A DNA stretch of 64,000 nt from Candidatus Falkowbacteria bacterium GW2011_GWF2_43_32 (GTDB lineage Bacteria; Patescibacteriota; Patescibacteriia; Patescibacteriales; UBA12465): NCBI GenBank assembly GCA_000999715.1, contig LCGL01000003.1, positions 26,942 to 90,941 on the forward strand, in the 5' to 3' direction. Every line of letters begins with the position of its first letter. The first letter of the stretch is position 1. Below the pieces are notes generated by a model. It made no database searches and was not told where the DNA came from. It saw only the letters and a program-made list of their open reading frames with translations. The position numbers were made by a program, and so were the translations under genes. Of the stretch, positions 5,192 through 50,692 are shown piece by piece.

Positions 5192-6397
5192 ATGAAAAAA
5201 CTTATGATTTTGGCGGCCGCGGTCGCTGTATTAACGGTTTCTTGCCGAGAGGAGGCGACTCCTTTTGAAGAAGAACCGCAAATTATTCCGAAAATTTATC
5301 TATCTTGGGACAGACCGGAAGAATTAAGAGCCCTTAATGTCTATTTGGGGTTTGAAAAAAGTGACCTCACCACGGAAGAAGTGGAAGAATTATATCACAA
5401 TTCCGCGCGCTTAATGATCCCTTATAAAGGAATCGTTAAAATGCTGAAATCTCCAAGTCAACCGACGGAGACGCAAATCCAAGCGCTCATAAGAAATCTG
5501 CAAATGGATTCTCTTTATTGTGATTTTACCGAGCTGAAAAATAGCCTGAACTATTTTCTCTTGAAAGGACGTCCGGTTTGCGTGGACATTCATGAATTTA
5601 TCGGTTATTTCCTGTATACCAATGAAGCAAACGACGCTCGTGATTCATCCCTTTTTATCAGCGCCTACAAACAAATTCTTTTAAAAGAATTTGAATTGCA
5701 GTTGGCGGGATTCTTGGAAAGAAATTACGCTCAGCAGGTGGAGGATGGCAATATTTGTTTGGAACTTCTTAATGAGCCTAAAAGCGACAGATGGGAAGAC
5801 ATTCAAAAAGATTTGGCGCAAGCCATCTCTGCCAAGTTTCCGAAATTGTGTTTAGCCGTCAGGCCGGACCAATCTTATTCTCCTAATTGCTTGCGGGCCA
5901 CTTGGTTCGATCCGGCTGATTACAGGAACATCAGGCATCTCACTTTCGTCAACTTTTGGTTTGCGGAAAGACCGGATATCGGCGCTTCGCCAATGGACTT
6001 CGCTATTCAGTACGACAAATTCGTACGATACCGAAACGGCGAAGATGTGGAATTTAATCTTTTTGGCGACCTAATAACCGGTTATTACTCACACCGGGAT
6101 TATGCTTTAAATCAACAATTGTTGGAAGAAGAATTCCAAATGTGCGTTGATTGGGCAAACAACCAGGGAGAAAAAATATTCTTTGCCGAACTTGGCTGTA
6201 TTCGCTACGCGGATCCGGACGGACAATATTTTCTTAATTGTCTCAAACTCGGACAAGAATATGACATCGGCATCGGCTTATTTGAAGTCGGCGCCCAATA
6301 TTTTTTCAATTACGACGGCGACGTGCCGTTTTATTTGAACGATAAAAGCTGGACGGGATTTCAATATCTGCAAATGGATCCGGCGGAACTAAACTGA
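5192..6397 (+). CDS. Lipoprotein, clan GH-A (GH5-like) glycoside hydrolase candidate
   Basis: 401 aa; lipobox VLTVSC; LELLNEP (NEP codons 5771-5779), SHRDY about 30 aa before FFAELG (Glu codon 6188-6190) = acid/base, His-x-x-Tyr and nucleophile pattern of GH5. Confidence 0.6.
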   Translation: MKKLMILAAAVAVLTVSCREEATPFEEEPQIIPKIYLSWDRPEELRALNVYLGFEKSDLTTEEVEELYHNSARLMIPYKGIVKMLKSPSQPTETQIQALIRNLQMDSLYCDFTELKNSLNYFLLKGRPVCVDIHEFIGYFLYTNEANDARDSSLFISAYKQILLKEFELQLAGFLERNYAQQVEDGNICLELLNEPKSDRWEDIQKDLAQAISAKFPKLCLAVRPDQSYSPNCLRATWFDPADYRNIRHLTFVNFWFAERPDIGASPMDFAIQYDKFVRYRNGEDVEFNLFGDLITGYYSHRDYALNQQLLEEEFQMCVDWANNQGEKIFFAELGCIRYADPDGQYFLNCLKLGQEYDIGIGLFEVGAQYFFNYDGDVPFYLNDKSWTGFQYLQMDPAELN

Positions 6398-7707: not shown

Positions 7708-9000
7708 TTAATTATCTTGATATTTTAATTCCCAGACTAACTGCGTAATTTCTTGCGGCGAAGGTTGAAGAACCGTTGCCATTTCCTGATGATTTCCCAT
7801 TGATTTGGCACTATTCATCGGTGTCATAAACACCAAAGCGTCCAAATCTTCATTATACAAAGACCAAGCCGTGATATCTAATAATACACCGTCAACTCCC
7901 GGTCGAATCATAATCCAATTCGCGCCACCGGATTGAAAAGAAATAGAATCTTTGGCTACCATGGCGTACATGGACCCTCCATACATAGTCAAAGAAACAT
8001 CTTCAGACTGTTGAGTAGTTCCGTTAATGGCTCTAACAAACTTATTTTCACCTAAAATGCCGGAATAATCAATGTACAGATTTACTTGATCTTCCATAAT
8101 TTTTGCATCATTGTTAGCTACCGCTCCAGAAGGAATTTGAGGCGAATAAGACAAGGGAAAAGGAATACCATTAATGAAAATGAACCCAATGGCTATTGTG
8201 ATATTACCATTTAAAACTGTATCTAAATAATATCCACCCATCCTCTCTGCATTAACCGTAAACCACTGATTATTGATTGAGTGCACCTGCAACCAATAAA
8301 TATTACCCAAGGGCGTTGGAGTAATATTGCTGTTTTTGGCAATAATTTCCACTTCCATATAACCCGGATGCTCAACGCTGTTAATAACATTGGCGTCAAT
8401 CAACGTCCAATTATCACTTCCACCGATATTGCCGTGCGCCTGTATCGTTCCCACAGGATCATTATTCCAAGCCGTCAGCCACAGCCAGCGACAATAGTAA
8501 TAACCGTTGCCCATGTCATAAGCAGTATCCACCATTTGATTCAAATTGACCGGATCAAACGGATACTCATCCGAACATATCAAACCAATAGTATCTACCA
8601 ACGTAACAATTGACGAATCGGCGGAAATAATCAAATCCACGGCACCGTCCCGAATGGAATATGAATGAGCCACAATAATATCGTTTCCGGAAACTACTCC
8701 CACATTGCTGGTTTCGTCGCCCCAGGAAAAAACATAATTATCGAAAACTGCACCATCGGTAATTTTGAAGAAATTAGAGGTCTTGTAAAACATGGTATCG
8801 CCAACCTCCAAATAATCCGGAGCGTTCATTGATTTTAGTCTGCCATACTCCGTAGCAGAAATTTGTTCCACTAAAAAGTGGTAGGATCTAAATTCATGGG
8901 TTCGGAAATCATTGATAATGAATTCCTCACCTTCTTTCCTGCAAGAAAACAGGGATAAAAGCATCAGGCCACATAAGCCAAAAAACATTTTTGTCTTCAT
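7708..9000 (-). CDS. Lipoprotein with N-terminal PKD-like segment, function unknown
   Basis: 430 aa; lipobox LLSLFSC; FSWGDETSN..VAHSYSIRDGAVDLIIS is PKD-like; notably AT-rich coding sequence. Confidence 0.6.
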   Translation of the reverse strand: MKTKMFFGLCGLMLLSLFSCRKEGEEFIINDFRTHEFRSYHFLVEQISATEYGRLKSMNAPDYLEVGDTMFYKTSNFFKITDGAVFDNYVFSWGDETSNVGVVSGNDIIVAHSYSIRDGAVDLIISADSSIVTLVDTIGLICSDEYPFDPVNLNQMVDTAYDMGNGYYYCRWLWLTAWNNDPVGTIQAHGNIGGSDNWTLIDANVINSVEHPGYMEVEIIAKNSNITPTPLGNIYWLQVHSINNQWFTVNAERMGGYYLDTVLNGNITIAIGFIFINGIPFPLSYSPQIPSGAVANNDAKIMEDQVNLYIDYSGILGENKFVRAINGTTQQSEDVSLTMYGGSMYAMVAKDSISFQSGGANWIMIRPGVDGVLLDITAWSLYNEDLDALVFMTPMNSAKSMGNHQEMATVLQPSPQEITQLVWELKYQDN

Positions 9001-11133: not shown

Positions 11134-12549
11134 ATGAAAAAAATCCTGTTTTTATTCGTAACGGCTGTATTCTTAATGATAGGATCGGCAGGAACCAACG
11201 CTCAAGGAAGCGTTAAGAGAATCAACGGAGTAATAAAGAACTCCGCTGACCGCGCCGTAGTATTCGGCTCTATCGCCAACGACCCGACACCGCCGGGAGG
11301 AACAATCACTCTAAAAGTAAACCAGGGAGAAAATATGATTCCCATATTATTCGCAAATCAAGCCGGAAACGCTCTGGACACCGTCACGGTAAAAGTTAAT
11401 TTTCACAGAGACGGCGACGTCTTTGAACTCACTACCGGACATTTAGGGAGATTTAATAATTCCAAACCCGACCTCACGGTTACTGCCGACAGAAATACCG
11501 GCAAAACGGTAAGCAATCAGTTGGACGGAATATTATTTTTTCTGGACCGGGGTATTTGCTTATCGCCGGGAACAAGCTCGCAAGAACTGATCGACCTTTC
11601 GCCTAACGAAAGAATAGTGATTGAAAAAAACTATCGCCTATTCTTTTTAGAAATTAGTGATTTCTTCGCCAAGAACGATAAGACGTATGCGGTCAGCCAA
11701 GAAACTTTGCTTCAAGGAAGCGGTCGCGACAGCATTATGGTGTCTTTAATCGCCGACGGAAGCGATTACGTTTTCATAGATGATCAAACCCGGGAAGTGA
11801 AAGGCATAAAATCGTCAAAAGGACGAGGCGGATATCAAAAGAATTTTGTTGAAGGCGCCAACACCATTTTAATGCAAACTCTGATGAATGGTGTCGCTCA
11901 AACAAGATACTACACTTTCATGGCTTCTAAAGGAAACACTACGGTTAGCCCGCCCGCCAGCGCTTTTGACAATCCGCCGCTATATTACGGCAGAAGAATC
12001 AAATTACCGCTTGCTGGTTTTGACAAGAGTTGCAGTTTCGAAATATTCGATCCTGTCAGCAAAACCTGGCTCAATGAAGTAATTATTGACGAAAACGGTT
12101 CTGTTAACGCTCAAACTTGCTTTCTCGGCATGAATCGCGTTCGGGTAAGCTATTTTGAAAAAACTCCTCAGGGCAGAATAAGGTATTCGTTTGAATATTT
12201 TAAACTGATTTCTGAAACAGACTCCGTTTTCAAAATAGATCCCAATTATTTCTGGTTACTGGCCGGAAAACCCGTGCCGGTTATTTTGAAAAATTCCGCT
12301 AAGAATGTTCTATTTCAACAAATAGAACTATGGAGTTTAAATCAACAGCTTAATCCCAGAAACATAGTGATTAAGAAGGACTATCCGACTGAAAAAACCT
12401 ATGTCAGAGAGGGAATCGCTCGCTTGCCGGGAAGATACACCGAAGGCTTAACCATCAGGAACCTGACCGTATCTTTCATTGTTTCTTCTCAAGACAAGAA
12501 CAAGCCGATAGAAATCAGAGATGAAAATATTGATCGAACGCAACGATGA
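11134..12549 (+). CDS. Secreted hypothetical protein
   Basis: 471 aa; signal peptide MKKILFLFVTAVFLMIGSAGTNAQG; no recognisable domain. Confidence 0.55.
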   Translation: MKKILFLFVTAVFLMIGSAGTNAQGSVKRINGVIKNSADRAVVFGSIANDPTPPGGTITLKVNQGENMIPILFANQAGNALDTVTVKVNFHRDGDVFELTTGHLGRFNNSKPDLTVTADRNTGKTVSNQLDGILFFLDRGICLSPGTSSQELIDLSPNERIVIEKNYRLFFLEISDFFAKNDKTYAVSQETLLQGSGRDSIMVSLIADGSDYVFIDDQTREVKGIKSSKGRGGYQKNFVEGANTILMQTLMNGVAQTRYYTFMASKGNTTVSPPASAFDNPPLYYGRRIKLPLAGFDKSCSFEIFDPVSKTWLNEVIIDENGSVNAQTCFLGMNRVRVSYFEKTPQGRIRYSFEYFKLISETDSVFKIDPNYFWLLAGKPVPVILKNSAKNVLFQQIELWSLNQQLNPRNIVIKKDYPTEKTYVREGIARLPGRYTEGLTIRNLTVSFIVSSQDKNKPIEIRDENIDRTQR

Positions 12550-12678: not shown

Positions 12679-13782
12679 TTATTTCACCTCTTCGTAAACC
12701 CGGGCGACATCTTTGGCAATATCCTCCCAATTAAATTCCTGTTTCACCCGTTGACGACCGTCAGCGGCCTTCGCCGCCACCGCCTCCGGACTGTCCAAAG
12801 CGGCCTGTAGTTTTATCTTTAAATCATCCACATTTTTATTGGCAAAAACAAATCCGGCCTCACCTAAGGCCTCCAAATTAGCCCGAATATCGCTCACCAA
12901 GCAAGCGGTTTGATAGCCCATCGCTTCCAACAAAGAAATAGACAGGCCTTCGCTTTCCGACGGCTGAACGAATAAATAAGCGTTGGAATAAAGCTCGCCT
13001 AAAGTCCGTCCGGTCTGATTGCCGGTAAAAATAATATTTTCATGACCGGCCGCGGAAGCGTGCAATTCGGCCACATAATCATCGGTATAAGCGCCGTCAC
13101 CGACGATAACCAACTTCTTATCGGTTTGCAAACGTTTATAAGCGTCAATCAAATATTGGATGCCTTTATGACGCACCAGACGGCCGATATAAACAAAATA
13201 ATCGTTTCCTTCCAGTCCCCAGCGTCTGATTTCCCGTACCGGAGTTTTTTCCATGATGGCGGCGCCGTTAGGAATATATAAGGAATTCTTATGAAATTCG
13301 CGCGGTACGTATTCCGTCAATTCTTTGGAAATAGTAATAATCCGGTCGGCCAAAGCACAGCCGATTCTTTCGCCGCAACGCAAATATAAGCGCGCAAACC
13401 ATCCCCATTTCTGGTGATAATAATCCTGGCAGTGAAAAGTAAAGACAATCGGCGTTTTCGGTTTGAATAATTTAACAATCCACATCAAAGACGCCGGACC
13501 GATAGATTGAAAATGAATAACGTCTACCCGACGAAAAATAAGGTCCAGACAAGCCAAAAAAGTATGAGAGATCGCTTCAAAATGTTTGCCGCGCAAACCG
13601 GGCAAATTAATGATTTTCACTCCCTTATATTCTTTCAGGCGTTCCGGCAAATAACCGTTACGGCTATATACAAAAACTTCCTGGCCGGCAGCCGCCAAGT
13701 TAACAGCCAAACTTTCCACGTATCTTTCTACGCCGCCAGTTTTAGCCGGTATACCTTTTTGTCCAATAAACGCAATTTTCAT
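12679..13782 (-). CDS. Glycosyltransferase family 4
   Basis: 367 aa; N-terminal MKIAFIGQKGIPAKTGGVERYV and C-terminal PSESEGLSISLLEAMGY motifs typical of GT4. Confidence 0.85.
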   Translation of the reverse strand: MKIAFIGQKGIPAKTGGVERYVESLAVNLAAAGQEVFVYSRNGYLPERLKEYKGVKIINLPGLRGKHFEAISHTFLACLDLIFRRVDVIHFQSIGPASLMWIVKLFKPKTPIVFTFHCQDYYHQKWGWFARLYLRCGERIGCALADRIITISKELTEYVPREFHKNSLYIPNGAAIMEKTPVREIRRWGLEGNDYFVYIGRLVRHKGIQYLIDAYKRLQTDKKLVIVGDGAYTDDYVAELHASAAGHENIIFTGNQTGRTLGELYSNAYLFVQPSESEGLSISLLEAMGYQTACLVSDIRANLEALGEAGFVFANKNVDDLKIKLQAALDSPEAVAAKAADGRQRVKQEFNWEDIAKDVARVYEEVK

Positions 13783-18009: not shown

Positions 18010-19287
18010 ATGAATACTTTCGATAACCAAGTCGATTTTGCCGCTAAAACTAAACGAACTTTCTTCCGCTATTGCAAAATAAGCTTGTTTTTGATTATTT
18101 TGATCGGCTTAATCGGCGCGGCGCCGGAGACTTTCAGCCAAAGTGGCAGTATCAACGATGAAATCAACAGTCTTAATTTAAAAATTCAAAATCAAAAAAA
18201 ACAATTGGAGCAATTAGCCACCAAACAAAAGGAGTATGAAGCGCAAATTGCGGCCAAGCAACGAGATAAGGCGAATTTGAACAACCAGTTGGCTATTTTG
18301 GAGAATCGCATTGCCAAAGCGCAATTGGATATTGAAGGCGCCAACTTGGAAATGGATAAAACCAGTCTAGAAATCAAAAAGGCGGAAATAGACAGTCTGA
18401 ATCTGGATCAAGAAATCGAGGAACAAAAAAATCACATTACCAATCTGCTGCGCTTAATGTACAAACAAGAACAAGTTTCCACCTTGGAAATATTGTTGAT
18501 GAACGATTCGCTGGCCGATTTTATGAATCAGATCAAATATCTGGAAAACGCCAACACGGAAATCGGCAAAAATGTGGCCGTTCTAAAACGCAACAAAGAC
18601 CAGTTGGAACATAATAAGGAAACTTTAATCCAAAAAAATCTGGAATTGGCGTCTTTAAAAAACCAACTGAAAGAACGGGAGGGAAATCTGATTTACGATC
18701 AGGAAAATAAAAGCTATCTGCTGGAGGAAACACGTTCCTCGGAACGGGAATATCAGGCTCTCTTGCAAAAAGCCAAACAAGAACAGCAACAGGCGCAAGC
18801 GGAAATAGCCAGCGCCGAACAGCTTATCCGGCAAAAGATGTCGCAACAGGACAAGAATCGCCTGGACAGCGGCAGCAGCGATATGGTCTGGCCGATTTCC
18901 AGCCACATGGTCACCGCCAGTTTTCATGATGCGGATTATCCTTATCGCAACATCATCGGCGAACATACCGGCATCGATATTCGCGCCAAACAGGGAACGA
19001 CTTTATCCGCCGCGGCCGACGGTTACGTCGCCAAGGTTAAATTTGACGGCAGTCGCAACTATGCTTATATCATGATTATCCACAGCAACGGCCTGGCGAC
19101 GGTCTACGGCCACGTTTCGGCCGTTTATGTCGCCACCGACCAATATGTCGTCCGGGGACAAGCCATCGGTCGTACCGGAGGCACGCCGGGCGGCGCCGGT
19201 TCCGGCAGTTTTTCCACCGGTCCGCATCTGCACTTTGAAGTCCGCCTGAACGGCTTACCGGTCAATCCGCTGAAATATCTGCCCTAA
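18010..19287 (+). CDS. M23 family metallopeptidase with N-terminal coiled coil (EnvC-like)
   Basis: 425 aa; TM/signal, long coiled coil, C-terminal HTGIDI..D..HLHFEV LytM motifs. Confidence 0.85.
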   Translation: MNTFDNQVDFAAKTKRTFFRYCKISLFLIILIGLIGAAPETFSQSGSINDEINSLNLKIQNQKKQLEQLATKQKEYEAQIAAKQRDKANLNNQLAILENRIAKAQLDIEGANLEMDKTSLEIKKAEIDSLNLDQEIEEQKNHITNLLRLMYKQEQVSTLEILLMNDSLADFMNQIKYLENANTEIGKNVAVLKRNKDQLEHNKETLIQKNLELASLKNQLKEREGNLIYDQENKSYLLEETRSSEREYQALLQKAKQEQQQAQAEIASAEQLIRQKMSQQDKNRLDSGSSDMVWPISSHMVTASFHDADYPYRNIIGEHTGIDIRAKQGTTLSAAADGYVAKVKFDGSRNYAYIMIIHSNGLATVYGHVSAVYVATDQYVVRGQAIGRTGGTPGGAGSGSFSTGPHLHFEVRLNGLPVNPLKYLP

Positions 19288-19375: not shown

Positions 19376-20332
19376 TCAAAAATTTCGTCCCTCATGCACT
19401 TTACGATGAATATCTCTTAGCTGTTTGTTGGTCACATGGGTGTAGATTTGCGTCGTGGCGATATTGCTGTGACCCAAGAATTCTTGCACCGTCCGCAGGT
19501 CGACGCCTTGATTGAGCAAATCGGTGGCGAAAGAATGACGTAAAGTATGCGGAGTCGCCATCACCGGCAAACCGGTTATTTTAACATATTTTTTAACTAT
19601 ATCCTCGATACTTTTGACCGACAAACGACGCGATTGTTCGGACTGATGATTACCGCGGCGATAATTGATAAATAAAGCTTCGTCCATATCCCGACGTTCC
19701 CGTAAATAAGCGCGCAAGGCTCTAACGGCTCGCTCGGAAAAATAAACTGTCCGAATTTTTCCGCCCTTACCGATAATGGCCGTCTCAATATCAACCGTTT
19801 CATCTTTGACACGCAATTGATCGCTATTCAAAGCCGCCAATTCGGCGACACGCAAACCGGTGGAAAATAAAGTTTCCAATAGCGCCCGATCGCGCAAACC
19901 GATGACGGTATCGGCGCTGGGCGCGCTTAATAATCGCGATAACTGTTCCAATTTTAAAAACTTAACTTCTTTGTCCGCCTTGTCTTTGGCCAATTTTACT
20001 TTTGATGACGGCAGGGAAGCGATGTCTTTCTCCGCAAAAAACTCCAAGAGAGAGCGCAGAGCGATCAAATAATAATTCTGAGTCGTCTTTTTTAAAGTTT
20101 TTTTTGTTTTAGGATTGGCGTGTCGCGACAAATAAACTTTATATTGCCAAATCAATTCCGGGGTCAGGGAAGCCGGCGTTAAATTTTCCCGCTTAATTTC
20201 TTTCAACCAATAAAAAAATTTGCGCAAAAAACGAGTGTAATTTTCTTGCGTTTTAGACGACAGACCTTTCTCGATTTCGCAATAATCTAAAAAATCTATC
20301 AAATATTTAATTAACGGTTTATTTTTATCCAT
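19376..20332 (-). CDS. Tyrosine site-specific recombinase, XerC/XerD-like
   Basis: 318 aa; SAM-like N-domain; catalytic pattern GLRVAEL..HTLRHSFAT..LGHSNIATTQIYTHV (R, HxxR, H, Y). Confidence 0.9.
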   Translation of the reverse strand: MDKNKPLIKYLIDFLDYCEIEKGLSSKTQENYTRFLRKFFYWLKEIKRENLTPASLTPELIWQYKVYLSRHANPKTKKTLKKTTQNYYLIALRSLLEFFAEKDIASLPSSKVKLAKDKADKEVKFLKLEQLSRLLSAPSADTVIGLRDRALLETLFSTGLRVAELAALNSDQLRVKDETVDIETAIIGKGGKIRTVYFSERAVRALRAYLRERRDMDEALFINYRRGNHQSEQSRRLSVKSIEDIVKKYVKITGLPVMATPHTLRHSFATDLLNQGVDLRTVQEFLGHSNIATTQIYTHVTNKQLRDIHRKVHEGRNF

Positions 20333-20413
20333 AAGACGATTGATGTTTCATTTTATCAACCCGGGGCAGGAAACAAACAACTTTGTTAACTGCCTCTTTT
20401 CTTGCTCAACAAT

Positions 20414-20441
20414 ACTTCGCATAATGTATATTAATATACCT
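20414..20441. other. Candidate dif / Xer recombination core site
   Basis: ACTTCGCATAATGTATATTAATATACCT; 16 consecutive nt identical to E. coli dif including central TGTATA; about 80 bp upstream of the xer-like gene. Confidence 0.55.
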
Positions 20442-20588
20442 TATAGCTAAGTTAAATATATCATAACGGCGGCCATATAAGCAAACTTCGCCAATAAGCC
20501 CTCGGATGGCGGAATTAACGACAAATTGATATAATGGCATTATAATTATCCCAACAAAATATCTGCGCAATCATTAATCAAAAATACT

Positions 20589-21152
20589 ATGGAAAAAGAA
20601 ATAAAAAAAGCTAATTTGGGATCGGGCGGTAACTATTTGACGGGATATGTTAACGTTGATAATAACGCGCTTGAAAAAGCCGATGTAGTTCATGATCTTA
20701 ACCGCTACCCCTACCCTTTCCAAAATAATGAATTTGACGAGATTCTGGCCAGCCACGTGATAGAGCACCTTGGCGACCCCTTGGATTTTTTGCAAGAACT
20801 ATGGCGCATAGCTAAACCCGGCGCTCAAATAACGATAAAATGCCCGCATTTTTCTTGTAATTGGTTGCATCCGCGCCATAAATCGGCAATATCTATCAAT
20901 TTATTCACTTTTTTAGATCACAACAACTCGGAAAAATATCTTAATGCGGATTTTCAAGTCAACAGCGTAAAGATGAGATGGCTATTGGGGCGTCAAGGAA
21001 AAAGAGGTCGCCTCAGCGCACGTTTTTTCAACGGAATTATCAGCGGTTTGGCCAACCTTAACCCGGCGCTGGCCGAAAGAATTTGGTGCTATTGGGTCGG
21101 CGGGTTTGAAGAATTAATATTTCTGGTGACAGCCAATAAGCATAGCGATTAA
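20589..21152 (+). CDS. Class I SAM-dependent methyltransferase
   Basis: 187 aa; LGSGGNYLTGYVNVD and ILASHVIEHLGDP..LQELWRIAKPGAQITI (Methyltransf_11-like motifs). Confidence 0.75.
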   Translation: MEKEIKKANLGSGGNYLTGYVNVDNNALEKADVVHDLNRYPYPFQNNEFDEILASHVIEHLGDPLDFLQELWRIAKPGAQITIKCPHFSCNWLHPRHKSAISINLFTFLDHNNSEKYLNADFQVNSVKMRWLLGRQGKRGRLSARFFNGIISGLANLNPALAERIWCYWVGGFEELIFLVTANKHSD

Positions 21153-21387: not shown

Positions 21388-22242
21388 TTAATTAAGATCG
21401 GGATTGATAAAAATCCGATCGCCATAGCGCAAATCAATATAATTCATCTTACTGAAATTATCCTTTATTTTTTCTTTTTTGACAAGCAAAAGGCGTTCCA
21501 ATTGTTCGCCGGCATCGTTTTTAACGTTAAAATAAACCGCCGGACCGTCAAAAAATTTAACCGTAATCATATTCAACTCTTGATCTATAATAAACTTATC
21601 CGCCCGCACTTCAGTTTGTCCGGCCAATTGTTCGCTCAGTTTCAAGAAAAAATTCAAATAATCCTCTTTGATAACGATGCGGTCCCGATCGTCCAATAAA
21701 CTGTTCTCGTTTTTATTTTCCAAAATCGGATATTTGTTCAGCTCTTCATCGACTACAGTCGGCTCTTTAATCACATACCCGTCGGCGGAAGTGTGAAAAA
21801 ACCCGCTTCCCTCTTGAAAAATAAAAGCGTAAGGACGTTCTTGAGCTTGTATTCGTAAGGCGCGCGGCCAACTTCTTTCCACGACGGCGCCGGCCAAATT
21901 ATATTCCGAGGCGATAGTCTGCGCGGCCGCTTCCCTGTCAAATAAAAAAATATTACTTTGCTTAAATATCAAGTAACGACTTTGATCCGCTTGGCTCCAA
22001 ATAATTTGTTCTATTTCCGCCGTTGATATCCGAGTCAAGCCGATAACGGTTACCGCTTGCAAACGCCAAAAAGAAGAAGCCAGAAAAAACCAGCCGGCCA
22101 GAATCAACAACAAAGCGAAAAAAATCAGCCAACGCAAAGAATGACCGCTCTTCCCTTTCTTTTTTCTCGGAAAAAAAGGATTGGCCAAATTTTTACGATG
22201 GTAATCTTGACGAATCTTTTTGGGTCGATGATTTTTAAACAT
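21388..22242 (-). CDS. ftsQ: Cell division protein FtsQ/DivIB-like
   Basis: 284 aa; basic N-terminus, one TM, POTRA-like LQAVTVIGLTRISTAEIEQII. Confidence 0.75.
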   Translation of the reverse strand: MFKNHRPKKIRQDYHRKNLANPFFPRKKKGKSGHSLRWLIFFALLLILAGWFFLASSFWRLQAVTVIGLTRISTAEIEQIIWSQADQSRYLIFKQSNIFLFDREAAAQTIASEYNLAGAVVERSWPRALRIQAQERPYAFIFQEGSGFFHTSADGYVIKEPTVVDEELNKYPILENKNENSLLDDRDRIVIKEDYLNFFLKLSEQLAGQTEVRADKFIIDQELNMITVKFFDGPAVYFNVKNDAGEQLERLLLVKKEKIKDNFSKMNYIDLRYGDRIFINPDLN

Positions 22243-29635: not shown

Positions 29636-32125
29636 CTACTTCGTTCCCAAGCCCGACCGACGGCTGATTTCCGCTTCCACCAAGCGAACATCCTGGCCAT
29701 ATTTCAAACGACTTAAAGAGCGAACTTTTTCTGCCAAACCCGGACGCTTGACGCCTAACAATGGCCAGGCGGTCTTTAAAGAGAAAGGCCGAGTAGCGCT
29801 ATTGTCAACCAATAATTTTATATAAGCCGTGCCCTTATCGATGTTAATCAAATCGTATTCGTTGAAAACCGGCGCGAACTCTTTAACCAAAAATTCGGCG
29901 TCTTCCGAGCCGATTTTAAAAGTCACCATTGTGCCAACGTTGCCGAAAACCGCATCTTTAATCTCCGTATTTTGTCCTTTGCTCAACTGACCGATATATT
30001 GATGGGCGATTACCAAATTCAACGCATATTTTCTCGCTTCCGATAATATCTGACAAATGGAATTGGTGGTAAAATTTTGAAACTCGTCGATATACAAATA
30101 AAAATCTTTACGCTGTTCGCTCGGCATATCCGTCCGACTCAAGGCGGCCATCAAAATTTTGCCGACCAAAATCATACCCAACAAATAAGCGTTCATTTCG
30201 CCGACCAGGCCTTTGGGCAAATCGATCAACAATATTTTCTGACGATCCATCACTTCGCGCAAATTAAAAGCGCTTTTCTGTTGACCGATGATCGACCGCA
30301 TCATATCGTTGGAAATAAAGGACGTCAACTTGGAAGTGATGTAAGGCACAATATTCGCCAAGGCCGCTTCGCCGCCGGCTTTTTCCGCTTCCTTTCTCCA
30401 AAAATCCACGACGGTTTGATTTTTACAACGACTTAATTTCAAGCGACGAAAATTTTCATCCGCCAAAACTTTGGGAATTTCCATTAAGGTGGAGCCTGAT
30501 TCCGGATCATCCATAATCAAAAGCATCGCGTTTCTCATATACTGCTCAAACATCGGTCCGCCGGTGGCTTTCAAGTCATATAATTTATCAAAGATGCCGA
30601 TCATTTCATTGATGACAAAACTTTTCTGTTCCGGATAGCGCGGATCATAATCCAATAAATTAAGCGACAAGGGGCGCTCCAGGTCTCCGGGAGAAAAAAT
30701 GATCACGTCTTCGGCGCGTTCCGGCGGCAAACGATCTAAAATATCGGCGATCAAATCGCCATGCGGATCAAGCACGCAAACACCTTCCCCGTTTTGAATA
30801 TCCTGAATGGCCATATTGGCCAACAAAACCGATTTACCCGTACCGGATTTACCGATGATATAAGTGTGCCGGCGTCGATCCGGTCGCTTCATGCGAATAT
30901 CTTGCTTGACGCCGCGATAAACATTTTCGCCGAGCGTAATGCCTTCATTCGGAATATTGTTGGGCGCCGGAGCAATCTTGGCCGTTAACCAAACGATATT
31001 CGGAGTCTCCGTGGTTTTTAAAGGAAAATGAAAAACACTGGCCAGCTCTTCGCTGTTTAACAAAAATCCGTATCGACCGCGAAAATAACGATAAATGAAA
31101 TCTTTAACCGTTCTGTCCGAATGTTTCTTGTCCGGACGGGAAAAAACATTGCCGTAACTGAAATTACTGTACTCGCTGAAAGCGCTGCCCAAATTTTCCA
31201 GATAAACATTGGCCTGTTCCCTGTTTTTGGCGCAAGCGATAATCCGTAAATTGACATCCAGTCCCGCCTTCAAATTTTTCTCTTCAATCGCCTTGACCAT
31301 TTCCTCCTCCACCGCCGACAATTTTTTCGGTGCCGAAGCGACTTCTTGATTGGCGGCAGTTTGCTCTTTTTTGGGACTGACCCAGAAATCACCGGCAAAA
31401 CTCAGCAAACTCCCCAAAGAACTGGCGGCTCTCAAACCGTCTTTAACGGAATTCTTCTGATGGATTTTGGCCACCGTTCGGCGCACTTTGGCGTGCCAAG
31501 CGGCTCGAGCGCTCCGCACGGTATACTGAATGGCCACACTTTCATCCTTGCCTAATTTTGACAAAATATTCACCAAAGAATTCATCGGATCAACCTCCAT
31601 TTTCTGATAAGTTTTGATGGGAAACAAAAAATCTTTACTGGTGCGCAAATAAGCGGCCGCAATCTGCCCCTGCAAACTGAAAGAATTGTAATCTTCCACT
31701 TCTTCGATCACCGCCTCCGGATAATGCGCATGAATCTGTTGTTCCAAATAACGAGCCTCGTCTTTGGGCGCCACGACATAAAAAGAGATGCGATTATGAC
31801 TGGCCACCACTTCAAAAGAAAATTGATCGTTGCGGCCATATAGCCAAGACTCGAAACCGCGTTGTGCCTTTAAACCGCCGACAGCGGCAAAAATTGTTTC
31901 TCCCTTGGCAATTTCTTCTTTAAGTTGTTGGCTGGAGCTCTCTTTCTTGTCGTCGGCCGGCTTTTCTTTGGGCAAGCGCACCAAAAAAACTTGATGACGA
32001 TAATAACGACGGCCGGAAAAAACCCAACGAATAATTTGTAAAATCAACACCACTAAAAACGCCAGGCCGATTGCGCCTAAAAAATACTGTAAAAATTCTT
32101 CAAAATTAAACGAAAAAAAATCCAT
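29636..32125 (-). CDS. Membrane-anchored FtsK/HerA-superfamily ATPase, VirD4/TraD (type IV coupling protein)-like
   Basis: 829 aa; N-terminal TM; Walker A IIGKSGTGKS, Walker B FYLYIDEFQNF, HQY..L motif; long N-terminal domain of unknown function. Confidence 0.7.
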   Translation of the reverse strand: MDFFSFNFEEFLQYFLGAIGLAFLVVLILQIIRWVFSGRRYYRHQVFLVRLPKEKPADDKKESSSQQLKEEIAKGETIFAAVGGLKAQRGFESWLYGRNDQFSFEVVASHNRISFYVVAPKDEARYLEQQIHAHYPEAVIEEVEDYNSFSLQGQIAAAYLRTSKDFLFPIKTYQKMEVDPMNSLVNILSKLGKDESVAIQYTVRSARAAWHAKVRRTVAKIHQKNSVKDGLRAASSLGSLLSFAGDFWVSPKKEQTAANQEVASAPKKLSAVEEEMVKAIEEKNLKAGLDVNLRIIACAKNREQANVYLENLGSAFSEYSNFSYGNVFSRPDKKHSDRTVKDFIYRYFRGRYGFLLNSEELASVFHFPLKTTETPNIVWLTAKIAPAPNNIPNEGITLGENVYRGVKQDIRMKRPDRRRHTYIIGKSGTGKSVLLANMAIQDIQNGEGVCVLDPHGDLIADILDRLPPERAEDVIIFSPGDLERPLSLNLLDYDPRYPEQKSFVINEMIGIFDKLYDLKATGGPMFEQYMRNAMLLIMDDPESGSTLMEIPKVLADENFRRLKLSRCKNQTVVDFWRKEAEKAGGEAALANIVPYITSKLTSFISNDMMRSIIGQQKSAFNLREVMDRQKILLIDLPKGLVGEMNAYLLGMILVGKILMAALSRTDMPSEQRKDFYLYIDEFQNFTTNSICQILSEARKYALNLVIAHQYIGQLSKGQNTEIKDAVFGNVGTMVTFKIGSEDAEFLVKEFAPVFNEYDLINIDKGTAYIKLLVDNSATRPFSLKTAWPLLGVKRPGLAEKVRSLSRLKYGQDVRLVEAEISRRSGLGTK

Positions 32126-39673: not shown

Positions 39674-41404
39674 TTAACCGTCTAAATTATCGCGTCTCTC
39701 CCGCACATAACGGGCCCAATCTTCCCCGATTTCCACCAAAACTTTAAAGGGGGCTTCAATGATGAAATCAAACAAAAAGATAAAAATATTGATTTTGGAA
39801 AATTCCCGAGACAACCAGCGACCGACCAGAATAATCGGCATATAAAACAAATCCAGCAAAAAGACCAGCAGATTTTCCTTGCGTTCCACGATGACCAATT
39901 CCTTGACTCCCCGGGTCGTGATTACGCTAAAGAAACTGACGAAAGCCAAGAAGAACAAAAAGATAATAATGCTCACCCAATTGAAATTGACTTTATCCAG
40001 GGCCCAAACGATGAAGTAAACGGAAACGCAGAAAGAGGCGACATAGACCAAATTAAAGATGCCGTTTTTAAACCAATTGCGCCGCGCCGGGCGACGCAAA
40101 ACAATCGGTTGTTTTTTCTCCTGTCCGGAAAAAGTAATTTCCTTCAAACCGTTGATGATTCTTTCCGTATTGTCTTTGTTCGGCTTGCGCGTCAAAGAAA
40201 CGATGAAAAACAACAAGACTGCCGGAAAAGCGATATTGATCAACAAAGAAATGGGATTCAAGGGTTCTCCGAACCATTTGATCGCCGGAATTTCAATCAA
40301 AATCACGAAAATGGATTTAGTCAAAAAAATGTAAATGATACTGCGCGTCGCCGCCCGCCAAAGCCGATTCTTGGCCGCTTGGTATTTCTGCTCGCAGACC
40401 TTGCGGACCGACGCGATGAAACCTTTTTCTCCTTTCTGCAATTCATTATAGGTCTTCGTCGGATTACCGGCGATCGTTTCCGCCAAAATGGAAGAACATA
40501 AAGAATACACCCGAACAATGCGATCCAATTGCTTGGTCAAGGGATGAGCCAATTGTTCATCTATCACATTTTTTAATTCCTCCAGACCGGCGGCGATTTT
40601 TTGAATCACGCCCCGCTCTTCTTCGGAGATCTTCCCCGCTTGGCCAATCTCCAGCCAATTCTTATTGTAATACTTGAACAAAACAAAACTTAACATCGCC
40701 GCATCAAATTTCAAAAAATTGCGATTGATGCTCAAATAAATTTGAATCTTCAAATCGGCTTCATAAGGCAGGTCGGCCGGCAATTTTATGTCTTTGGACA
40801 AGAAGGACAAAAGATTATTGACCAATACCCTTTTCACCGGATCCGGAGACAAATTTTCTTCAATCTCGCAAGCGGCCAAAGTCAACAACCAATGAACGAA
40901 TTTATTTTTGCTGTTGATCAAATCCTTGGCAGTATTGATGTCGGTTCTTAAATTCAAATCGGCGTTAATCTTGGCGACAAACTTTTCTTTCAATAAAATA
41001 TATTTCTCCAGCAAAGCGCCGATTTCTTGAATTTTACTTTCGGGAATTTTATTGTTCGGCAAATAACTGCCGCGAATCAGTTCTATCAACAATTGCTTGG
41101 CGAGAGTCAAGCCATCCGCTCCTTTAACCACGCCTTCGATCATAATCTGCCGACGCAAAATACGGTTGATGGCGTTTTTACGAAGCAGATGATCTTCCCC
41201 GTAATCTACGGCATTCCTGACTTTCTCATAAAAAAAAGACAACCGCGAAATCAAGGTTGACACTTTAAGGCGCGGAATATTGTCGTCATCCCGCTCTTCT
41301 TTATTTTGTTCGCTATAGATTATCCGAAACAGCCTTTTCGCGTCCTCATTAATTTCCACCGCCCGCTCTTCTTCGGTTCGTTTTATTAAATTCGGACTAA
41401 CCAT
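39674..41404 (-). CDS. Large polytopic membrane protein, function unknown
   Basis: 576 aa; ~330-aa soluble helical N-domain then at least five TM segments; no motif recognised. Confidence 0.55.
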   Translation of the reverse strand: MVSPNLIKRTEEERAVEINEDAKRLFRIIYSEQNKEERDDDNIPRLKVSTLISRLSFFYEKVRNAVDYGEDHLLRKNAINRILRRQIMIEGVVKGADGLTLAKQLLIELIRGSYLPNNKIPESKIQEIGALLEKYILLKEKFVAKINADLNLRTDINTAKDLINSKNKFVHWLLTLAACEIEENLSPDPVKRVLVNNLLSFLSKDIKLPADLPYEADLKIQIYLSINRNFLKFDAAMLSFVLFKYYNKNWLEIGQAGKISEEERGVIQKIAAGLEELKNVIDEQLAHPLTKQLDRIVRVYSLCSSILAETIAGNPTKTYNELQKGEKGFIASVRKVCEQKYQAAKNRLWRAATRSIIYIFLTKSIFVILIEIPAIKWFGEPLNPISLLINIAFPAVLLFFIVSLTRKPNKDNTERIINGLKEITFSGQEKKQPIVLRRPARRNWFKNGIFNLVYVASFCVSVYFIVWALDKVNFNWVSIIIFLFFLAFVSFFSVITTRGVKELVIVERKENLLVFLLDLFYMPIILVGRWLSREFSKINIFIFLFDFIIEAPFKVLVEIGEDWARYVRERRDNLDG

Positions 41405-48216: not shown

Positions 48217-49983
48217 TTAAAAAGCAAAAGGTAATTTTCTCTTATCGACGGACGAAGTCAAAATCGGATTCCGTTTTTTTGTAAATTTAGTATGCAATAA
48301 CCGAGCGCCGAGATTTTGTTCCTTGATTCTGGCATAATATGCCAACATCGGTTTATTCTCATGCGCGCGGCGCATCAATCGATTTTTATCAATGTTATAC
48401 AGGCTTTCCCAACGTTTCCTCCTAATGGCCGCCGTAGTCGGAATCGGTTGCCCGCCACCGCCCAAACAACCGCCCGGGCAAGCCATCACTTCTATATAAT
48501 GGTATTTTTGAAGTTTTGGCAAGATGCGGGAAAAATTGCCCAAACCGTTGACGACACCCAGGCGAATTTTGCGTCCGTTTAAAACGAGAGTAGCCTCTTT
48601 AAAGCCCGCCAAACCGCGCACTTCCTTAAATTCCAGGCGTTGATCGGGTGAATGTTCCGTCGAACCGGAAGGCTTTGTCCGACCGGTCGCGGCTAGCAAA
48701 GCCGCCACGGTGCGCAAAGCCGACTCCATCACGCCGCCGGAAGCTCCGTAAATCGCCGCCGCGCCGCTACCGCGATTGAACAATTTTTCGCCGTCGGAAT
48801 CCGGCAAATTTCTAAAATCAATGTTATGTTTTTTAATCAAATAAGCGAACTCGCGCACGGTTAATACATAATCCACGAGTTTCCGCTTTTGCCATTTCAA
48901 TTCCGGGCGCGCCGCTTCATATTTTTTGGCGGTACACGGAACAATGGAAACGACGACGATTTTTTTCGGATCAAGCTTTTTTTTCTCCGCCCAATATGTC
49001 TTGATGGCGCCGGCCAAATGGATATGAGGCGAACGTGCCGTGGTCAAATGCGGCAATAATTCCGGATGATAAAATTCGGCATAGGCAACCCAGGACGGAC
49101 AACAAGAAGTCATCAACGGCCAAACCGCTTGCGGCTGACGCCAACGATCCATAAATTCTTCCGCTTCGGTCATGGTCGTAATATCGGCGCCGAAATTTAT
49201 GTCAAAAACATGAGCGAAGCCCAATCTTTTTAAAGCCGTATAAATTTTTCCTTCGCAATTCGTGCCGACAGGCAAACCGAATTCTTCTCCCAAAGATACG
49301 CGCACCGCCGGCGCAAATTGAGCGACCACGATTTTATCTTTAGCCGACAAAATTTTTTCTACTGCCGACCAATTGCCCTGCTCTTGAGCGGCGGCCACCG
49401 GACAATGCAAAGTACACTGACCGCAATAAACGCAAGCGATACTTTTATCGCGCGTCGGCCGAATCTCTTGATTGATGCCACTACCGACCACTTCCAAATA
49501 ATTAATGCCTTGCCGGGCGCAAGCTGTCACGCAATTTCGGCAATCAAAACATTGCGTGCCGTCGACTTCCACGGCTTGATCAAAACGATAAGTGCGACGG
49601 CCTTGTTTTCGATCGGAGAAACGATTGATTGGCACTTTATATTTCCGACTCAACTTTAACAGCTCGCAATCGTAAAAATAGGAACAATGACCGCATTTCT
49701 CGACATGCGCCCCGAAAATCAACTCCAAGTTGGTGCGACGCGCCTGTCTGACCCGCGGACTGTCGGTTAACACTTCCATACCGGCGACGGCGACCGTCGA
49801 GCAAGCCGTCGCCAAATTTATCCGGCCTTTGATTTCCACCGCGCAAACGCGACAATTGGCCTGAACTTCCAGGTCGGGATGATAACACAAAGACGGAATC
49901 TCTATTCCGTTTTCGCGCGCAATTTCCAAAATCGTTTGCCCGGCGCGGCCGGTTATTTGTTTATTGTTTATTTTGAGTTTCAT
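48217..49983 (-). CDS. hydA: [FeFe]-hydrogenase catalytic subunit (2Fe-2S + 4Fe-4S domains + H-cluster domain)
   Basis: Start at MKLKINNK (49983, overlaps upstream stop as TAATG); H-cluster motifs TSCCPSW, VPCTAKKYE, MACPGGCLGGGGQP. Confidence 0.9.
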   Translation of the reverse strand: MKLKINNKQITGRAGQTILEIARENGIEIPSLCYHPDLEVQANCRVCAVEIKGRINLATACSTVAVAGMEVLTDSPRVRQARRTNLELIFGAHVEKCGHCSYFYDCELLKLSRKYKVPINRFSDRKQGRRTYRFDQAVEVDGTQCFDCRNCVTACARQGINYLEVVGSGINQEIRPTRDKSIACVYCGQCTLHCPVAAAQEQGNWSAVEKILSAKDKIVVAQFAPAVRVSLGEEFGLPVGTNCEGKIYTALKRLGFAHVFDINFGADITTMTEAEEFMDRWRQPQAVWPLMTSCCPSWVAYAEFYHPELLPHLTTARSPHIHLAGAIKTYWAEKKKLDPKKIVVVSIVPCTAKKYEAARPELKWQKRKLVDYVLTVREFAYLIKKHNIDFRNLPDSDGEKLFNRGSGAAAIYGASGGVMESALRTVAALLAATGRTKPSGSTEHSPDQRLEFKEVRGLAGFKEATLVLNGRKIRLGVVNGLGNFSRILPKLQKYHYIEVMACPGGCLGGGGQPIPTTAAIRRKRWESLYNIDKNRLMRRAHENKPMLAYYARIKEQNLGARLLHTKFTKKRNPILTSSVDKRKLPFAF

Positions 49984-50692
49984 TAGTCTTTGATCTTGAC
50001 CAAATCCCGATACAACCGATAAGCGAATACCATGACCACCGGACCGATCAGCAAGCCGATAATTTGCACCAGCGCGCCGCCCAGCCACCCCCAAATATTA
50101 TTGCCCAAATATGCGGTCGGCCAAGAAATCAAACTGATAACGGCGACCAAAACCAAGCCAATCAGCAAAAATCTGCCCAAGACCGGCCACCAATAACCTC
50201 GTACCAGGGCATAACTGCGATTGACCGCATCCATGCTTTTCTTGTCTTCAAAAAAGAAAGCATAAAGAGTAAAGGCGTAAAAAATCGAAAAAATAAGCGC
50301 CGGAATCACCAAGGCGAAAAACCACAGCAATATCAAAACGCTAGTTAAAAATTCCAACGAAATATAAGACCAAAAATAGGCGGCCGATTCCCGATATATT
50401 TTTTAATCAACAGGAACAAAGACAAATAAATTCTGATCAGAAAATAAACCGTCAACAAAACGGCCCACAAGCTCAGCCAAAACCCCAGACCTAAAAAAAA
50501 CGGACTTAAACCGAGATCGGTATTGGACCCGATCAATACGACCGCGACGATGACCGCTAAGGGCACCAACGCGAAAAGAAAACCCCAAAGATAAATTAAA
50601 ACGATTTTTTTTAAATTTTTCCACCAAATTTTGACGGCACTTTCCAACAGAGAAAAACCCGGCGTTAATTTGGCTTTTTGATTTTGTTCCAT
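49983..50692 (-). pseudogene. Polytopic membrane protein gene split into two frames at an A6/T6 homopolymer (50399-50404)
   Basis: Track ORFs 50345-50770 and 49983-50357 overlap; the downstream frame is open back to the homopolymer and reads on as KIYRESAAYFWSYISLEFLT..; one extra A would fuse them into ~235 aa. Confidence 0.5.

Follow-up and report, generated by a model that had tools for sequence, protein, structure and literature searches.

A conserved 28-bp dif-type site and its neighbouring xer gene as the probable chromosomal recombination module of Candidatus Falkowbacteria

The 28-bp element ACTTCGCATAATGTATATTAATATACCT, located at positions 20414-20441 (+ strand) of a 64,000-nucleotide stretch of the genome of Candidatus Falkowbacteria bacterium GW2011_GWF2_43_32 (hereafter the window), is probably the cognate site of the adjacent Xer recombinase, and the two together probably constitute the chromosomal dif/Xer module of Ca. 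Falkowbacteria, a reading to which we assign a probability of roughly 0.78. That the element is a real, deeply conserved dif-type Xer recombination site is strongly supported by comparison of orthologous loci, and the resolution of chromosome dimers would be its most likely use. Its coordinates and letters are exactly those of a preliminary description of this DNA, in which the distance to the recombinase gene was put at about 80 bp; between the xer ATG and the site there are in fact 81 bp (20333-20413).

From a structural point of view, the site consists of two 11-bp arms separated by a 6-bp spacer. The left arm ACTTCGCATAA (20414-20424, + strand), which is proximal to xer, is identical in 73 of 75 species, always lies on the xer side and would act as the high-affinity Xer-binding arm. 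It is followed by the central strand-exchange region TGTATA (20425-20430, +), which is the same as the spacer of E. coli dif, and by the right arm TTAATATACCT (20431-20441, +), which varies among lineages while retaining the pattern TTAA...A..T, and which would be the weak arm. No second copy of the 28-mer with up to three mismatches is present in the 64-kb window, and a weight matrix for dif-type sites, built from 75 orthologous sites, finds a single match there, at 42.9 bits, with nothing else reaching 8 bits.

It is the comparison with relatives, rather than the likeness to E. coli dif, that is decisive for the reality of the site. A scan of one genome per species yielded 80 loci carrying Xer orthologues 66-88% identical to that of the window, and when the regions upstream of the orthologous xer genes were aligned, a check proposed in the preliminary description, the 28-bp element was found on the same side of xer in 75 of the 80. 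In the alignment of these 75 sites, which took in 40-bp flanks, each position of exactly these 28 bp carries about 2 bits of information, as against about 0-0.5 bits in the flanks, with the exception of a short AAT/AT extension that is conserved beyond the 28 bp. Within this block of exactly 11 + 6 + 11 bp, the spacer (TGTAKA; 44 species with TGTATA, 25 with TGTAGA) and the left arm ACTTCGCATAA are near-invariant. The right arm occurs in 25 variants among the 75 species, with positions 18-21, 25 and 28 near-invariant (TTAA, A25 and T28); it takes the form TTAATACACCT in the clade of the window (16 species) and TTAATTAACGT or TTAAGCGAAGT in other clades. In 14 of the 75 species it matches the inverted left arm at 10-11 of 11 positions, and one locus (L056) is perfectly symmetric, with ACTTCGCATAA-TGTATA-TTATGCGAAGT; such symmetry is what a tyrosine-recombinase core site occupied by a homodimer should show, and implies that a single protein would recognize both arms. 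The pattern of conservation supports the view that the 11-6-11 register proposed earlier is the functional one.

The resemblance to reference dif sites, of which Kono et al. 2011 (PMC3025954) print those of E. coli and B. subtilis, is informative to a lesser degree. The 16-nt exact run CGCATAATGTATATTA shared with E. coli dif, which occupies positions 5-20 of the site and contains the whole hexamer TGTATA, is as it had been described, and a run of this length was not reached in any of 300 first-order Markov simulations of the window (maximum 14, mean 10.6). The overall identity of 20/28 to E. coli dif had also been counted correctly, but as evidence it loses its force, since the same value arises by chance in 14% of simulations; the resemblance to B. 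subtilis dif amounts to 19/28, is equalled at two other places in the window and is not significant. Thus, the run alone is significant, and overall identity to either dif was rejected as evidence because it is non-significant on its own; taken by itself, the similarity to E. coli dif is moderate evidence, suggestive but not compelling. A near-palindrome had been noted as well, formed by ATAATGTATATT and AATATACCTTAT (20421-20432 and 20433-20444). Its pairing of 11/12 is correct, but its functional symmetry is not borne out, the median among the 75 species being 7/12, and the register 20421-20444 was discarded as an unconserved accident of the right arm in the species of the window. In the 11-6-11 register, the right arm of the window site agrees with the inverted left arm at 5 of 11 positions, and the inner complementary pairs (positions 7-12 vs 17-22) number four when counted by eye, against five in relatives of the TTAAGC type and six in L056; the inner-palindrome criterion of Kono et al. 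(PMC3025954) is more than four such pairs.

An independent view of the site is provided by a scan of metagenomes with the DNA pattern ACTTCGCATAATGTAKATTAA only, which returned 120 loci with one copy apiece. The sequence on the left-arm side extends to 2.2 kb or more in 65 of these loci, and in 63 of the 65 it includes the xer orthologue, always divergent from the left arm; across 200 loci totalling 1.7 Mb the full site is present once per locus. Two high-GC contigs (56-62%) share the first 21 bp of the site, L119 (site at 805) and L179 (site at 400), and continue into a canonical XerD-type arm, TTAAGTTAAAT and TTAAGTCAAAT, respectively. Both represent the ordinary dif of unrelated bacteria from other phyla, and their sharing of 21 bp indicates that the left arm and spacer of Falkowbacteria are true dif sequence. 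Two low-GC contigs (28-31%), L138 (site at 6225) and L191 (site at 13173), carry a palindromic version, ACTTCGCATAATGTAGATTAAGCGAAGT, at convergent gene junctions, with no xer nearby and no synteny with Falkowbacteria. These xer-less copies show that conservation of the site is not tied to the xer promoter, and the palindromic form may serve other CPR lineages in which xer is unlinked.

The neighbouring gene, xer (19376-20332, - strand), encodes a 318-aa XerC/D-like tyrosine recombinase, as judged by Pfam, NCBIfam and structure matches. Two domains are recognized, Phage_integrase (PF00589) and a SAM-like N-terminal domain (PF02899), and R161, K192, H262, R265, H288 and Y297 align with the catalytic residues of XerD, so that all six are present; with these residues and both domains the protein falls among the tyrosine recombinases of the 'simple' type. 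Its nearest solved structure is E. coli XerD (1a0p, E = 6e-37), whereas XerH (5jjv) is matched at E = 1.8e-11 and in the catalytic domain only. The protein scores below the curated cut-offs of XerC (224 bits, cut-off 335), XerD (219 bits, cut-off 330), XerA (192.6 bits, cut-off 220) and XerS (115 bits, cut-off 267), as well as of the integron integrases (TIGR02249, 105 bits over a short C-terminal stretch, cut-off 265). A protein homologue search returned close orthologues only, with at least 79% identity. There is one Xer homologue in the window and one in each of about 200 loci; together with the 9 kb beyond the window and the symmetric arms of 14 of the 75 relatives, this suggests that a single recombinase serves the site. 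Plausibly, the protein belongs to the 'Cand' subgroup of Smyshlyaev et al. 2021, which comprises Xer-related simple tyrosine recombinases from candidate phyla and for which the available text of that paper describes no recombination site (PMC8138268).

When set beside known systems, the module combines features of several. With XerCD/dif of E. coli and most bacteria it shares a 28-bp site with 11-bp arms and a 6-bp spacer, identity at positions 5-20 including TGTATA, a recombinase most similar to XerD and XerC and, in distant Falkowbacteria relatives, a skew switch at the site. It differs in that the xer gene adjoins the site, that many relatives have identical arms, which implies that a single protein takes the place of two, that the window site has no XerD-type arm (TTATGTTAAAT) and lies away from a skew switch, and that the recombinase falls below both the XerC and XerD equivalog cut-offs. 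Two paralogues above those cut-offs, the criterion for a canonical XerCD system, are not found within the window and the roughly 200 loci. Linkage of gene and site in the single-recombinase systems XerS/difSL and XerH/difH, on which the preliminary description had drawn, agrees with the literature (PMC5357621, PMC2731167). The XerS/difSL system of streptococci and lactococci resembles the present one in having the gene immediately beside the site as one module and in its single recombinase (a trait that is likely here) (PMC5357621), but difSL measures 31 bp with an 11-bp central region, in contrast with the 6-bp spacer here, and XerS, with 356 aa, is distant from XerCD, in keeping with the low score of its model (115 bits vs 267). 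In Helicobacter and Campylobacter, the site is likewise linked to the gene in most species and is served by a single recombinase, as probably here (PMC2731167), and XerH/difH has a strong and a weak arm, cooperative binding and an asymmetry that sets the order of cleavage (PMC5241119). The arms are unequal in both systems; however, XerH is only distantly related to the present Xer (E = 1.8e-11 vs 6e-37 for XerD), and difH resembles difSL, whereas the Falkowbacteria site resembles canonical dif. Another instructive example is archaeal XerA, a XerC/D-like recombinase that works alone on a site of the 11-6-11 type; the arms of this site are nearly identical, it has positions in common with bacterial dif, and in Sulfolobales it lies close to xerA (PMC2958812). 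The symmetric arms of 14 of the 75 relatives (those of the window being asymmetric) recall this system, XerA is the next-best NCBIfam match (193 bits) and, as a lead only, the protein has 'SVK' at the position of 'TRQ' in XerD, resembling the XKX motif given for XerA. On the other hand, the host is a bacterium and the score stays below the XerA cut-off of 220.

The module can be envisaged to work as follows. One Xer monomer would bind tightly to the invariant left arm ACTTCGCATAA, and a second monomer of the same protein would bind cooperatively to the weaker right arm (TTAA-N3-A-N2-T). Two sites thus occupied on a chromosome dimer would then synapse, Tyr297 would cut at the borders of the 6-bp spacer TGTATA, and two ordered pairs of strand exchanges would convert the dimer into monomers. 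The order of exchange would be set by the conserved asymmetry, as in XerH/difH; three features make up this asymmetry, namely the spacer sequence, the weak right arm and position 21, which has A in place of T.

Several other explanations of the site have to be weighed against the reading as a site for a single Xer. The closest of them is a conventional two-recombinase dif, in which the right arm of the window's clade (TTAATAYACCT) would be bound by a second Xer paralogue encoded elsewhere. This arm is unlike the left one (5/11) and yet is conserved in the clade, with TTAATACACCT in 16 species, and the search for Xer covers 73 kb of the genome. We nevertheless consider a second recombinase unlikely: the window and about 200 loci have a single Xer homologue apiece, the orthologous sites of relatives have identical arms, a weak second arm is normal in the single-recombinase XerH/difH system (PMC5241119), and the recombinase scores equally for XerC and XerD, unlike one member of a pair. 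The site might instead be mainly an operator for transcription of xer, bound by Xer itself or by another regulator, and not a recombination site. It does lie within the region upstream of xer. A putative extended -10 element of xer, TGATAAAAT, can be placed at 20350-20358 (- strand) of the window, 17 nt before the ATG, and of 50 orthologous intergenic regions, 29 have a TGnTATAAT-type element ahead of the xer ATG. In the near clade the median gap between the end of this element and the ATG is 7 nt, which suggests that the xer message may be leaderless there, and about 68 bp, with variable spacing, separate the element from the border of the site. In the 1.7 Mb of related loci, the left arm recurs 13 more times as an exact copy, always 12-195 bp upstream of xer and in one orientation, such that Xer binding near its own promoter seems to be selected; most of these copies abut an extended -10 (TGnTATAAT), for instance in ACTTCGCATAAtgTGaTATAATgcttatATG, and 11 of the 13 belong to lineages with the full site shifted by over 200 bp. 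Solitary ACTTCGCATAA copies lying against the extended -10, a few nucleotides before the xer ATG, were observed in L049, L059, L060, L064, L065, L106, L112, L139, L153, L155 and L199; this arrangement suggests that Xer may repress its own gene through a solitary half-site. As to the full site, however, an operator as its main role is quite improbable. It has the 11-6-11 architecture of a recombination site and 21 bp in common with canonical dif, it stands anywhere between 16 and about 2000 bp from the xer ATG, unrelated genes having been inserted into the gap, the near-clade -10 lies at a variable distance of about 68 bp from its edge, and the same site exists without an adjacent xer in L138 and L191. 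The window itself contains no solitary half-site, and with the -10 at 20350-20358 and the variable spacing of the site, the full site is unlikely to be the xer operator here; a regulatory side-role is possible.

Two further alternatives were considered. The site could be the attachment site of a mobile element, with 'xer' as its integrase, or an integron-like attI: a recombinase gene adjoins it, and unrelated small genes are found beside it in about 15 species, as is a methyltransferase gene in the window. Such an origin is very improbable, given that the conserved housekeeping genes on both flanks keep their order across nearly all 80 species loci, that each locus has a single site and not a pair, that no match was found in 2.9 million viral contigs, that the recombinase reaches 105 of the 265 bits required by the integron-integrase model, and that no second or degenerate site surrounds the methyltransferase gene. 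Finally, the element could be a hairpin, either a transcription terminator or a structured RNA, ending the operon of the ftsQ-like gene, from which it lies about 180-400 bp downstream; its arms are self-complementary in some species. This can hardly be credited, as the invariant left arm never compensates for changes in the right arm, many species have separate G+C-rich hairpins in the interval from the ftsQ-like gene to the site, and at the site there is neither a terminator-like call nor an Rfam match. The reading as the cognate site of a chromosomal Xer is therefore preferred to each of these.

The gene neighbourhood is itself highly conserved. Reading towards the site are serS, a gene for a GHL15-family protein, a hypothetical gene, alr and the ftsQ-like gene (POTRA), followed by xer, beyond which the conserved M23 peptidase, gltX and wecG/NUDIX genes read back towards the site; this conserved housekeeping order on both flanks argues against a mobile element carrying xer. 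In the window, the ftsQ-like gene (21388-22242, - strand; Pfam POTRA_1) lies on the right-arm side and the M23 peptidase gene (18010-19287, + strand; Pfam Peptidase_M23) beyond xer, both reading towards the site and both syntenic in nearly all loci. Between the site and the ftsQ-like gene stands a divergent, lineage-specific methyltransferase gene (20589-21152, + strand; 187 aa, Pfam Methyltransf_11), with a promoter-like ACGACA-17-TATAAT on its side at 20518-20546; no counterpart was found in the 80 syntenic loci, and the gene appears to be an insertion. Unrelated small ORFs are likewise found between the site and xer in about 15 other species, and the immediate surroundings of the site are thus a hot spot for gene insertion. 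A common element among the inserted genes was sought and rejected, as they are mostly unrelated. The weight matrix detects no second or degenerate site flanking the methyltransferase gene within the window, and an IMEX signature at that gene was discarded for this reason.

Other features of the window were recorded alongside. In canonical XerCD/dif, recombination is activated by FtsK, with polar motifs of the KOPS type directed at the site; among the 23 window proteins scanned, none has an FtsK_SpoIIIE domain. An 829-aa protein (29636-32125, - strand), whose gene adjoins dnaX and serS 9 kb from the site, has an N-terminal membrane helix, a DUF8128 domain and a VirD4/TraD/HerA-like P-loop ATPase domain; it was considered as FtsK and rejected, being VirD4/TraD-like, a member of the FtsK-HerA superfamily in the broad sense and FtsK by no model. 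A 625-aa protein (48217-50094, - strand) resembles the large subunit of [FeFe]-hydrogenases, with Fe_hyd_lg_C and ferredoxin-type domains. Several long ORFs (375-576 aa), such as 5192-6397, 7708-9000, 11134-12549 and 39674-41404, have no Pfam match, and Rfam and tRNA scans of the window found nothing.

The relation of the site to the replication terminus is less straightforward. The preliminary description took the site to mark the terminus, a claim that fails in this genome, where no skew switch is seen, and holds in distant relatives, which switch at the site. The extremum of cumulative GC skew that had been expected near 20.4 kb is absent, the curve falling monotonically through the window. 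Raw and fourfold-degenerate-site GC skew were set aside as direct tests of the terminus, since gene strand and codon usage dominate both, and were replaced by a regression in which the skew of each gene is explained by its strand and by the side of the site on which it lies, together with the coding-strand skew of orthologues. For the window genes, the estimates are +0.063 for strand, -0.059 for the constant and -0.005 +/- 0.007 for side. Strand-corrected skew can thus be followed for about 30 kb towards xer and 43 kb in the other direction without a switch; the fourfold-degenerate-site skew agrees in showing none in the window, and none appears in the 9 kb past its left edge, on the xer side. 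Consequently, the minus strand is G-rich on both sides of the site, and by this measure a replication fork passes through it. In proteobacteria, the distance from dif to the skew peak has a median of 7.3 kb and a third quartile of 21 kb (PMC2731167), and the window site falls outside this usual range.

Gene orientation and the composition of relatives present a different picture. Genes converge on the site in the window, those to its left being mostly on the + strand and 32 of the 37 to its right on the - strand. When all loci are oriented with xer as +, the side away from xer has 278 genes on the + strand and 7 on the - strand, and the xer side 286 on the - strand and 125 on the + strand, xer included. 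In the 37 most distant species, the xer-side genes that face the site (M23, gltX, wecG) have a mean coding-strand skew of +0.14 and those on the opposite strand (xer, corA, a glycosyltransferase gene) a mean of about -0.02. The strand-adjusted skew of the xer side is accordingly rD = -0.079 in these species (p = 4e-10), that is, a switch from positive to negative at the site, in the direction expected of a terminus; rD is about -0.01 in nearer clades and +0.057 in the window, and it correlates with Xer identity (Spearman 0.49, p = 9e-7), the p-values for skew being generous, as species are not independent. When window positions 1-20332 are compared with loci L044-L080 and the metagenome loci, the coding-strand skew of M23, gltX and wecG, at about +0.14 in distant Falkowbacteria, is seen to have fallen to about 0 in the window, and that of their opposite-strand neighbours xer, corA and the glycosyltransferase gene to have risen. 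It seems that the direction of replication of the segment 1-20332 changed in the lineage of the window with gene order unchanged. We infer that the site was ancestrally at the terminus and still is in some lineages, that the compositional terminus moved in the lineage of the window, and that the convergent gene orientation seen here would be a fossil of the former terminus.

A more far-reaching idea, which we put forward tentatively and regard as doubtful, is that, in the lineage of the window, the Xer/dif module and the replication terminus are no longer coupled. It is prompted by genes that still converge on the site, by a skew switch that has faded in nearer relatives and is reversed in the window, and by a right arm of a newly conserved form. 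If it were true, dimer resolution would be independent of the position of the terminus, and perhaps of FtsK, as with archaeal XerA, or else the module would have taken on another role; alongside such an uncoupling there would be autoregulation of Xer through solitary left-arm half-sites placed against the extended -10 promoter.

The Candidate Phyla Radiation (CPR, Patescibacteria) makes up a large and mostly uncultured share of bacterial diversity, and its chromosome maintenance is almost unstudied. The survey of Kono et al. 2011 covers 16 phyla (PMC3025954), and no mention of CPR or Patescibacteria was found in it or in the other literature searched, nor was any dif linked to CPR or the 28-bp sequence itself; apparently, an Xer/dif module in CPR has so far been undescribed. 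The present analysis yields a defined 28-bp site and its probable recombinase for one CPR class, as well as a natural series of variants that runs from perfectly symmetric to strongly asymmetric sites, with the orthologous Xer proteins. In the curation of metagenomic CPR genomes, the 28-bp site may be of practical value as a marker of the ancestral terminus. A canonical-looking dif that is served, as seems likely, by one gene-linked XerC/D-like recombinase would stand between XerCD and the atypical XerS and XerH systems.
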